Assembly (NCBI GenBank): GCA_963723105.1
Contig: CAVRPK010000007.1
Coordinates: forward strand, 37,461-101,460
DNA: 64,000 nucleotides
Reading direction: 5' to 3'
From: an uncultured Candidatus Micrarchaeota archaeon
GTDB taxonomy: Archaea; Micrarchaeota; Micrarchaeia; Anstonellales; Bilamarchaeaceae
The first letter of the stretch is position 1. Each line of letters begins with the position of its first letter. This document shows positions 13,834 through 59,559 of the stretch, piece after piece. The notes below the pieces were generated by a model. It was not told the origin of the DNA, did not search any database, and was given only the letters and a program-made list of their open reading frames with translations. A program made the position numbers and the translations under genes.

Positions 13834-15339
13834 ATGAGCTTCAAAAAGGAACTTGAGAGACTTGTTGAAAATGCAGAAATCATATTTAACCCGTCAGAAG
13901 ATGAACTTCGAGAAATGGCTAAGGGAGAGGGGAAAGAAACCAAGTTTGGCAGTGTTTGCTATAAGACAAAACTAAAGGGAAGAAGCGCCAAGCATACCCA
14001 GGTAATAGAGGGCAAAGCAACAGAAGAACAAGTTCGAACAATTCAGAAAGTAGTGGAATATGTTGCAAACAAAAAACTTATCCAGCTCGACCGGCAGATG
14101 TGCCTTACAAAACCATTTTTCTGCAGGGCATATGTATCTGCAGAATATGCACACATAGCACAGATGTGGGGCATGATGCTATTCAAAGAAGTGAAAATTG
14201 ATCACCCGGATTTTATCACAGTTCAAATTCCAGAATGGCCAGAAACAAAAATTATTTGTGATCCTGAAGATAAAATTACATTTATTTTGGGTTCAGATTA
14301 TACGGGAGAGCTGAAAAAGGCAAACCTAAGGCTTGCAATGTTTGCAGCAAAGCAAAGAGGAGGACTTGGACTGCATGCTGGATCAAAATTAATCAGGGCC
14401 ATTGATGAGCAGGGAAGAATGCAAGAGAAAGGAGTGTTGCTCTTTGGTCTTAGTGCAACTGGAAAAACTACATTAACATGCCACCATCATTGGCTCGATG
14501 CACTAAAGAGAGAGGGAGTTGCAATACGCCAAGACGATGTTGTTCTCTTAGATACAGATTCCTCGTCAATTGGAACTGAAAAAAACTTCTACATCAAAAC
14601 AGATGGTCTTGAGGCAGAAAATCAAGGGGTTTTGTATGAAGCTGCAATAGGTAAAAAAGCATTGTTTGAAAATGTGGCAGTGCTTCCAGATGGAACCATA
14701 GATTTCTTTGACACAACAGATACTGCAAATGGAAGGGCAGTAGTTCCAAGAAATGAAATGAGACATACTGATCTAGATATTGATCTTCAAAAAACAGACA
14801 TTGTGCTTTTCATAACACGGAGAAATACGATTGTTCCTCCTGTTGCAAGACTTAATGCAGAGCAAGGAGCAGCATTCTTTATGCTAGGTGAATCAATTGG
14901 AAGCTCAGCCTCGGATGTGGATCCTGGAAAAACAAGGAGGGTAGTTGGAACAAATCCATTTATCATAGGCCCGCTGCATGAAGAGGGGAATCGATTCTAT
15001 GAGATATTAAAGAGAAACCCCAATATCAGATGTTTTCTCCTGAATACTGGAAAGATTGGTGAGGGAGGAACAAAAGAAACAGAAAAGATAACAGTAAGGG
15101 ATTCGGCATCCATAATCAGAGAAATAGCAAGAGAAAGTATCAAATGGAAAAAAGATCCAGATTGGGGCTACGAAGTTATGGAAAGCTGCCCAGGAATTGA
15201 TATTTCAAGACTGGAACCAAAGAACCACTATTCTCCTGAGGATTATCAAAAACTAACACAGGAGCTCAAAGATGAGAGGCAAAAGTGGCTGCACAAGTTC
15301 AAAGGCCTTTGCACTGAAATCCGAGAATGCATCCAATAA
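13834..15339 (+). CDS. pckA: Phosphoenolpyruvate carboxykinase (ATP)
   Basis: YTGELKK, LHAGSK, FGLSATGKTTL, QDD, NGRAV and LLNTG motifs. Confidence 0.9.
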   Translation: MSFKKELERLVENAEIIFNPSEDELREMAKGEGKETKFGSVCYKTKLKGRSAKHTQVIEGKATEEQVRTIQKVVEYVANKKLIQLDRQMCLTKPFFCRAYVSAEYAHIAQMWGMMLFKEVKIDHPDFITVQIPEWPETKIICDPEDKITFILGSDYTGELKKANLRLAMFAAKQRGGLGLHAGSKLIRAIDEQGRMQEKGVLLFGLSATGKTTLTCHHHWLDALKREGVAIRQDDVVLLDTDSSSIGTEKNFYIKTDGLEAENQGVLYEAAIGKKALFENVAVLPDGTIDFFDTTDTANGRAVVPRNEMRHTDLDIDLQKTDIVLFITRRNTIVPPVARLNAEQGAAFFMLGESIGSSASDVDPGKTRRVVGTNPFIIGPLHEEGNRFYEILKRNPNIRCFLLNTGKIGEGGTKETEKITVRDSASIIREIARESIKWKKDPDWGYEVMESCPGIDISRLEPKNHYSPEDYQKLTQELKDERQKWLHKFKGLCTEIRECIQ

Positions 15340-15393
15340 CACCTATGATCGGCCAAATGAACAGAATTAAAAGACAAAAGATCATAATTAGTC

Positions 15394-15524
15394 TGTGGAT
15401 GATGATCAAGGTGATCACTGAGTCTAGCCCTAAGCTAGTGTTTGATTAGTATGTCAGTATTAATCAGACCAGGGGAAACCCGGCCACGGCAAAAACGGTG
15501 AAGGTTGACGTGCGGTCTGACACA
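15394..15524 (+). ncRNA. Elongated (about 130 nt) box C/D RNA with 76-nt structured insert; guides to 16S C1402 region and 16S 3' end
   Basis: Stem TGTG/CACA; C ATGATGA 15399-15405; guide TCAAGGTGATCA; D' CTGA 15418-15421; C'-like GTGAAGG 15498-15504; guide TTGACGTGCGGT; D CTGA 15517-15520. AATTAAAA TATA-like about 25 nt upstream. Confidence 0.82.
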
Positions 15525-15612
15525 AAATACATGTTCGCTTTGGAATATTAGGAGTTAGTTCTGGCTCTTCCATGCACAGCAGATTTTTATATTGTTAAAG
15601 GAAATTGACTTC

Positions 15613-59462: not shown

Positions 59463-59468
59463 GATCAT

Positions 59469-59559
59469 TTCGGTCAGACGCTGTTGACGCTGTCATCAAG
59501 ACAAGAGCTAAAATACGGCGCTCAAGCCTCTCTAAGGTTGTCCATGTCATCATCCCGAA
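59469..59559 (-). ncRNA. Box C/D guide RNA (91 nt) with about 31-nt hairpin insert
   Basis: Stem TTCGG/CCGAA; C ATGATGA 59553-59547; C' TTGATGA 59499-59493; guide CAGCGTCAACAGCGT; D CTGA 59477-59474. D' is degenerate (TAGA). ATTTAAT TATA-like about 25 nt upstream. Confidence 0.82.

Follow-up and report, generated by a model that had tools for sequence, protein, structure and literature searches.

Sequence analysis of the window, a 64,000-nt stretch of contig CAVRPK010000007.1 from an uncultured Candidatus Micrarchaeota archaeon (DPANN), led to the discovery of a gene for a box C/D small RNA (sRNA) of about 130 nt with a long folded domain between its internal boxes D' and C'. We regard it, with a probability of about 0.72, as an independently transcribed box C/D guide RNA that carries a fixed structured arm and not a switch. 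The source genome is a metagenome-assembled genome (MAG) of 1.12 Mb with 39% G+C and 66% completeness. The features by which archaeal box C/D sRNAs are recognized are present: box C near the 5' end and box D near the 3' end, a terminal stem joining the two, internal D' and C' boxes, 12-nt spacers on both sides and a Watson-Crick pair at N+5. Their usual dimensions, a short kink-loop (K-loop) of 3-9 nt and a total of 50-60 nt, are exceeded by a structured linker of 76 nt. The elements listed in a preliminary description of this DNA (C/D boxes, terminal stem, guides, insert and complementary stretches) were all found where it had placed them, and its claim of an unusually long box C/D RNA holds. 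Rfam gave no match in the whole window at gathering thresholds, and at E values up to 10 only weak snoRNA-like matches of 10-18 bits appeared (thresholds 38-75), so that no existing family was matched.

The D'-C' insert is a conserved, covarying folded domain. An alignment of the 18 homologues from the genus (A1) was folded with RNAalifold and examined by explicit pair counts, which approximate a formal R-scape test; a covariance model then gave 77 hits in 78 loci, and these form a second alignment (A2). In the consensus fold, 94.4% of the cells of A1 are paired and 15 of the 22 pairs are changed on both sides, whereas slid controls are 27-44% paired. The corresponding values for A2 are 93.2% and 18 compensatory pairs of 22, and with either alignment none of 500 shuffles reached the observed pairing percentage or covariation score. 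Such strong covariation is not what neutral filler would give. Of the three hairpins originally proposed for the insert, the long one and GGG-GAAA-CCC covary, but CTAGC/GCTAG is only 66.7% paired, with 96-281 of 500 shuffles doing as well. Minimum free energy folds of single sequences disagree among themselves and with the consensus, and were not used for the native fold.

The arm described by the consensus starts with the two-pair stem P1a (Table 1), which occurs as GC/GC, GT/AC and GC/GT, so that both pairs change on both sides in the 77 sequences. All three pairs of the following stem P1b are standard in 52 of the 53 distinct sequences that bear the next motif, in at least seven combinations (GCC/GGC, TCC/GGA, GCT/AGC, GCC/GGT, ACT/AGT, TCC/GGG and GTT/AGC). 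This motif, the internal loop CUAA/CAC, is found in 53 of 70 distinct family sequences (55 of the 77 family hits), even where both terminal hairpins are missing; it is invariant in all 53 and occurs once only in the source MAG. Stem P2 is capped directly by UUCG or GCAA in short relatives. In hairpin HP1 all 11 modelled pairs show changes on both sides, the loop letters GTC are invariant and the A is nearly so. Because P1a follows directly on box D' and a 3-nt bulge precedes the GA of box C', the C'/D' motif appears to form a stem-closed kink-turn (K-turn) and not a K-loop; this is our own reading against the standard K-turn scheme as set out in sections of PMC7994747 and PMC6009581. The invariant CUAA/CAC loop and the near-invariant GUCA loop, which stand amid freely covarying stems, point to a specific contact of the arm.

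Transcription is indicated by one of the 19 runs listed, two of which are RNA libraries. A 143-nt contig (depth 88.9) from a groundwater metatranscriptome is 100% identical to the window over 15395-15513 and runs uninterrupted through the insert, as expected from the earlier claim of an RNA spanning it. The flanks of the sRNA are without cover in the RNA library and a contig in the downstream gene has a depth of 2, where stretches without cover are no evidence of absence. The 22 unaligned letters that precede 15395 in the contig are the end of an Illumina adapter followed by GGG. Such a junction marks the RNA 5' end in template-switch libraries, and 15395 is taken as the 5' end. The TATA-like box upstream of it (Table 1) is a probable archaeal promoter element; a GATTAAAA/AATAAAA-like box occurs at the same distance (about 27 nt) in most relatives from the genus (L003-L020), the flanks of which are otherwise unalignable. 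A further RNA run (X15) matches only 15453-15525, at depth 4, and continues into unlike sequence; it represents a relative and is uninformative on expression of the present gene.

The 143-nt contig bears on the idea that the insert is an archaeal bulge-helix-bulge intron, the removal of which would leave a canonical sRNA of about 55 nt. Long insertions in the rRNA genes of relatives and the existence of canonical-length homologues in other genera are in line with such an intron, but the contig reads without splicing from box C to the D guide, the insert included, and no joints are reported in it. Furthermore, the intron geometry, with two 3-nt bulges on opposite strands 4 bp apart, is absent, as internal loops of 3x4 and 4x3 are found at the foot of the insert, and the internal sequence is conserved. 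We rejected this candidate as almost certainly wrong.

Whole-length homologues were found in 22 of 24 genomes of the same genus, with 71-100% identity and with flanks that do not align, and the complete element goes far beyond what chance would give. The exact D guide followed by box D is present in 62 of 401 genomes of the phylum, which are to be read as samples of incomplete genomes, and the reversed-pattern control gave 0. By group, the counts are 53/76 in the family f1, 24/28 in the own genus (g1), 5/17 in f9, 2/2 in f7, 0/94 in f13 and 0/82 in f14. Scanning one genome per prokaryote species with a pattern composed of the TGA of box C', the D guide (any base allowed at position 7) and box D gave 98 stretches. 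Those that resemble an sRNA come from Candidatus Micrarchaeota, Micrarchaeia, Bilamarchaeaceae, Anstonellales or 'ainarchaeum', and the remainder are scattered bacterial stretches without box C, as chance would give. Conservation of the sRNA spans one family and, in part, the order. Its terminal stem is replaced by CTAC/GTAG or ATAC/GTAT at the same site in relatives, some of which have only 1-2 pairs, and box D' reads CTGA in 36, CCGA in 23 and otherwise in 11 of the 70 distinct sequences.

Target tests used the 16S rRNA of eight relatives, four of them of the same genus, together with the 23S rRNA of the source MAG. All eight 16S sequences contain the decoding region ACACACCGCCCGTCAAG / ACCGCCCGTCAA (one with ACTGCC) and the 3' end GCGGATAGATCACCTCCA. 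In agreement with the address first proposed, the D guide pairs with 16S 1398-1409 at 11 of 12 positions, with a mismatch at C1403 and a G-C pair at N+5, which falls on C1402; site numbers (C1402, C1403, C1533) follow the E. coli numbering. This match is the best hit in the 16S of one relative plus the own 23S. Almost no variation is seen at guide positions 2-12, and several bases occur at position 1 (T 58, G 13, A 5, C 1; n = 77). Position 7 is T in 76 of 77 sequences and A in one, never the G that would pair with C1403. The positions that pair with 16S are invariant and non-pairing positions variable, a pattern that fits 16S as the target. No site in the own genome is perfectly complementary to the D guide, and such sites occur in only 2 of 81 family genomes, no more than with the reversed-pattern control; a looser pattern with two mismatches was too noisy and was not used. 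The conserved U opposite C1403 was accounted for neither by the insert, nor by another target, nor by 16S variation. Speculatively, it may keep the duplex with this very G+C-rich target from becoming too stable, or hold the guide in register along the CCC run.

That U would find a partner if the true target of the D guide were located in the 23S rRNA (runner-up site, own 23S around position 1046, ACCGUACGUGGG), where it faces an A within nine contiguous pairs including one G.U. The pair at N+5 would then be G.U, however, and the invariant guide positions 2-3 would be unpaired. Moreover, the site varies among 15 aligned relatives (ACCTTACG, ACCGTACA, ACCAGGAC and others) while the guide is fixed, and we consider a 23S target very improbable. 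The segment around it (about 1020-1060 of the own 23S, L039; UUACGGG...ACCGUACG) shows compensatory changes among relatives (UAAGG with CCUUA), and appears to be an ordinary variable helix that resembles the D-guide target by chance.

The 2'-O-methylation of C1402 (Cm1402) is made by RsmI in bacteria. In eukaryotes, the equivalent of the E. coli nucleotide is yeast Cm1639, guided by snR70, and human Cm1703, according to a section of PMC2794176. For seven archaea surveyed in PMC4644070, the main text gives sparse predictions for helix 44 (h44), this site not among them, and the supplementary tables could list more. Targets equivalent to C1402 or located in the 3' tail may be listed in the target tables of PMC4644070, PMC6009581 and PMC3491384.

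The D' guide, for which complementarity to the 16S tail had been claimed, indeed forms eight contiguous pairs with the tail GAUCACCU in the relatives, with a G-C pair at N+5 opposite C1533; eight contiguous pairs are also reached somewhere in 16S plus 23S by 35 of 200 shuffled D' guides. Its core GGTGATC is invariant in the 18 genus sequences, which had been found by whole-length similarity, and is kept in 72 of the 77 family hits, with guide positions 1-3 and 12 variable. As a separate observation, in every naked-RNA fold tried box C pairs with the 3' part of the D' guide (15399-15417; UGAU.AC with GU.GAUCA). All positions involved are invariant and hence beyond covariation, and the pairing is probably a by-product of the GAUC palindrome.

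Paralogous sRNAs of canonical length (L049, L062, L111) have kept the D guide and have a different D' guide (CACGTACGACT) and a 4-nt linker. The best 16S match of this other D' guide is AGUCGUA near the 3' strand of h44, with 7 bp. Two or three copies of the D guide with box D are present in six genomes (G071, G158, G210, G280, G284 and G307).

The preliminary description further proposed that the RNA may be self-gated, the insert forming either its own hairpins or a fold in which the D guide and box D are buried, and so gating methylation. Complementary stretches are indeed present: TCAGACC (15464-70) with GGTCTGA (15514-20), CACGGCAA (15485-92) with TTGACGTG (15505-12), and TGTCAG (15452-57) with CTGACA (15517-22). 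In A1, 77.4% of the cells can pair in the alternative fold as compared to 30-39% in slid controls, a percentage inflated because the fold was derived from the own sequence, and 276 of 500 shuffles do as well. For the HP1 loop with box D, 75.5% of the cells are paired and 155-213 of 500 shuffles are as good. A conformational switch should leave covariation in both folds; here the native fold is matched by 0/500 shuffles, whereas the alternative helices show none beyond shuffles and the insert strands follow their native partners. Thus, the 3' arm of HP1 varies against a constant box D, and at four of the seven positions 8-9 of 18 sequences are unpaired; the change of G to A in column 101 (4 of 18) breaks an alternative pair and is compensated in P1b by C to U. 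The single guide variant T7A is uncompensated, and two of the proposed mimics overlap on guide positions 5-6. As suggested, the mismatching guide base can pair with the A of CAC in the internal helix; relatives that have only a 3-nt or tetraloop linker in place of the insert, however, conserve this U just as strictly. We consider self-gating improbable. What little is left to it comes from pairs that are untestable by covariation, the invariant GUCA loop and CAC being complementary to UGAC and GUG of the invariant guide, and from naked-RNA folding, in which the GGCC of the insert pairs with GGUC upstream of box D in three of seven sequences (G000, L004 and L016).

Among the 70 distinct family sequences, the D'-C' linker may be as short as a loop of 3 nt or as long as about 139 nt. 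A 3-nt linker occurs in 2, and a plain hairpin without CUAA/CAC, often capped by UUCG, in 15 (14 of 9-32 nt and one of 81 nt). In 7 sequences, P1a, P1b, CUAA/CAC and P2 end in a tetraloop (33-46 nt); the full form, as in the source MAG, is shown by 37 (74-87 nt), and in 9 additional hairpins of about 55 nt, located at three different sites, extend the linker to 121-139 nt. The main alternative to a functional arm is based on this series, namely that the insert is a neutral, expansion-segment-like hairpin without any function beyond closing the C'/D' K-turn. The spread in length, the placement of the extra hairpins at three places and the lack of HP1 and HP2 in some species all agree with neutral growth, as do the equally variable linker of a second C/D RNA in the window and the varying lengths of the 16S and 23S rRNAs of relatives. 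Purifying selection on both sequence and fold, evident from the invariant CUAA/CAC, the nearly invariant GUCA and the compensatory changes in the stems, argues against it, and we hold neutral expansion to be possible but not the probable explanation.

The second box C/D-like RNA is located at 59468-59559 (-) and comprises a TTCGG/CCGAA terminal stem, GATGATGA, a 32-nt hairpin linker, TGATGA and CTGA. It was the one good candidate from two crude regular-expression scans of the genome for further C/D RNAs, which also gave one probable false positive. In relatives both of its guides are kept, and the linker can be as short as a UUCG hairpin of 10 nt or as long as 45 nt, a UCCUAC loop being present in several; the best rRNA match of its D' guide is in the own 23S near 2615 (10/12, with G.U counted as half). 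Because this RNA varies likewise, stem-closed expandable C'/D' linkers appear to be a trait of the lineage, and the invariant CUAA/CAC loop is special to the RNA at 15395-15524. The rRNA genes of relatives vary in length or match piecewise (L031-L038, L146-L160), with 1493-1627 nt for 16S and 2890-5113 nt for 23S, which suggests introns or expansion segments.

Table 1. Elements of the box C/D sRNA gene and its putative promoter in the window.
Feature	Position	Strand	Remarks
TATA-like box AATTAAAA	15365..15372	+	about 23-30 nt upstream of the RNA 5' end
Whole sRNA, about 130 nt	15395..15524	+	5' end from the RNA contig; 3' end placed by the terminal stem and the limit of conservation
Terminal stem, 5' strand TGTG	15394..15397	+	pairs with 15521-15524
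Box C ATGATGA	15399..15405	+	TGATGA invariant in 18/18 genus sequences
D' guide TCAAGGTGATCA	15406..15417	+	12-nt spacer; core GGTGATC pairs with GAUCACC(U) of the 16S 3' tail; N+5 faces C1533
Box D' CTGA	15418..15421	+	read from the sequence
D'-C' insert, 76 nt	15422..15497	+	read from the sequence
P1a, 5' strand GT	15422..15423	+	pairs with AC 15495-15496; C-stem of the putative C'/D' K-turn
P1b, 5' strand GCC	15427..15429	+	pairs with GGC 15488-15490
Internal loop CUAA, invariant	15430..15433	+	opposite CAC 15485-15487
P2, 5' strand GCT	15434..15436	+	pairs with GGC 15482-15484; three-way junction beyond
Hairpin HP1, 13 bp	15440..15469	+	loop GUCA 15453-15456; from pair counts
Hairpin HP2 GGG-GAAA-CCC	15472..15481	+	GGG/CCC and GGA/UCC; loops GAAA, GCAA or UUCG in relatives
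3' strands of the arm	15482..15496	+	P2 15482-84, CAC 15485-87, P1b 15488-90, variable 4-nt bulge, P1a 15495-96; RNAalifold and pair counts
Box C' GTGAAGG, degenerate	15498..15504	+	ATGAAGA or ATGACGA in most relatives
D guide TTGACGTGCGGT	15505..15516	+	12-nt spacer; pairs with 16S 1398-1409; N+5 faces C1402; U at guide position 7 faces C1403
Box D CTGA	15517..15520	+	read from the sequence; boxes C and D invariant in 18/18 genus sequences
Terminal stem, 3' strand CACA	15521..15524	+	read from the sequence

The sRNA gene occupies a 274-nt gap between a phosphoenolpyruvate (PEP) carboxykinase gene (13834-15339) and a gene for a methyltransferase of the PEMT/ICMT family that starts at 15592 or 15614. 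A single unpaired G separates the 5' strand of the terminal stem from box C. Just upstream of the sRNA promoter, at 15305-15356, where the PEP carboxykinase gene passes into the spacer, a contig from the best DNA-containing run has 71 other letters in place of 50 bases and another DNA run departs from the window at these two points as well, which represents strain-level variation.

The canonical archaeal C/D sRNAs, such as the sR families of Pyrococcus, Sulfolobus, Pyrobaculum and Nanoarchaeum, share with the RNA described here the boxes, the 12-nt spacers, the short terminal stem, the N+5 rule, rRNA targets, the double-guide logic and probably the partner proteins fibrillarin, Nop5 and L7Ae. 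They measure about 50-60 nt and have a D'-C' loop of 3-9 nt that forms a K-loop, as described in parts of PMC7994747 and PMC6009581, whereas the present RNA has a conserved multi-helix linker and an apparently stem-closed K-turn. Literature searches found no paper on C/D sRNAs of Micrarchaeota or of DPANN archaea beyond Nanoarchaeum, and no archaeal C/D sRNA with a long structured D'-C' insert. The eukaryotic snR70 and SNORD43 (U43) target the same universally conserved nucleotide for 2'-O-methylation (PMC2794176, in the section cited above), but a sequence relationship was not found in the Rfam search and the archaeal guide has the mismatch at N+6, so that these RNAs are functional analogues only. 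SNORD13/U13, snR45 and snR4 are likewise longer than standard and pair by two antisense elements near the 3' end of the small-subunit rRNA. The SNORD13/snR45 type brackets one cytidine for acetylation by Kre33/NAT10, whereas the two elements are here about 120 nt apart, at either end of h44-h45, and have the geometry of methylation guides. An acetylation guide of that type was rejected, as the elements pair at 1398-1409 and 1530-1537 and not around the CCG of helix 45 (h45). Finally, the 5' strand CCUAAG of the 11-nt GAAA tetraloop receptor (CCUAAG/UAUGG; 10.1101/2024.03.11.584472) is identical in the arm. The 3' strand reads C-CAC-GG, which is one nucleotide longer, and the sole GAAA loop of the RNA, that of HP2, is replaced by GCAA or UUCG in relatives; the likeness is a lead and not a membership.

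The preferred reading, that of a guide RNA with a fixed arm, can be put in mechanistic terms as follows. The sRNA would work with L7Ae, Nop5 and fibrillarin, the latter two of which are encoded in the source MAG, and the ribonucleoprotein (RNP) would 2'-O-methylate C1402. The D' guide would meanwhile hold the 16S 3' tail (1530-1537), and while the small subunit is assembled the RNA would thereby clasp the 3' minor domain (h44-h45) at either end. A coupling of methylation to 16S 3'-end maturation, as suggested in the preliminary description, is hypothetical. With a helix in place of the usual K-loop of 3-9 nt, the insert is predicted to turn C'/D' into a true K-turn. A rigid arm would extend from it, composed of P1a, P1b, P2, the CUAA/CAC loop between P1b and P2, and HP1 (GUCA) and HP2 at a three-way junction. 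A protein or an rRNA element may dock on this arm. The guides need not be disturbed by it, since in the known architecture of small RNPs (sRNPs) the C'/D' loop faces away from them. Probably the arm grew by stepwise accretion, in a lineage the C/D RNAs of which would generally close C'/D' with hairpins.

Several points weigh against this reading. In the 66%-complete MAG no 16S was found, and the cognate pairings are derived from relatives; an L7Ae-family hit is also lacking from this MAG, which is the sole exception among 31 genomes searched, the other 30 having such hits. As a match, the D' pairing of 7-9 bp is weak and not significant alone. No complementarity was found between the conserved insert elements and the 16S and 23S rRNAs. 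Alignment A2 was fitted to the model and its sequences are related, hence the changes in it are not independent events. The RNA evidence consists of one contig from one study, and contigs neither fix the 3' end nor exclude DNA carry-over. Lastly, the conserved U.C mismatch is located at N+6, directly beside the target nucleotide. In vitro work with archaeal sRNPs indicates that a mismatch at this position could impair catalysis.

This last point leads to the alternative that the RNA is a non-catalytic chaperone, an antisense placeholder which binds 16S at both sites and does not methylate it. The strict conservation of the mismatching U and the short D' duplex agree with such a role, and chaperone functions have been proposed for double guides with distant targets in parts of PMC4644070 and PMC6009581. 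On the other hand, the N+5 pair is a Watson-Crick G-C, one mismatch lies within the usual prediction criteria given in PMC4644070 and target lengths of 8-12 nt are considered normal in PMC6009581 (passages of either paper), and C1402 is ribose-methylated in the other two domains according to the cited section of PMC2794176. We therefore judge a purely non-catalytic role to be rather unlikely.

A more far-reaching version of the guide reading, which we hold to be quite unlikely, is that the arm makes the RNA a U3/U13-like assembly chaperone in addition to a methylation guide. The D guide would then keep the 5' strand of h44 unpaired and the D' guide would mask the anti-Shine-Dalgarno tail, with h45 emerging beside the C'/D' K-turn. 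The receptor-like loop CCUAAG/CCACGG, about 8-9 bp-equivalents up the arm, might capture the GGAA tetraloop of h45 or a factor of the Dim2/Nob1 type. In this way the arm could stand in for the h44 docking site until release, which the U.C mismatch might tune.

A uniformly small size and a K-loop are characteristic of the known archaeal C/D guide RNAs. The RNA described here is a new structural variant of this known class, with no counterpart in Rfam, in which the K-loop is replaced by a conserved and covarying multi-helix domain and the guide geometry is retained. The intermediates in its relatives, from a 3-nt loop to about 139 nt, provide a natural series for the way in which small RNPs gain eukaryote-like extensions. 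The family also predicts that Cm1402, a modification of the decoding site already known from bacteria, where a protein enzyme makes it, and from eukaryotes, where a snoRNA guides it, is made by an RNA-guided system in an archaeal lineage. As the same RNA touches the 16S 3' tail, a role in folding of the 3' minor domain would be testable in the few co-cultured Micrarchaeota.

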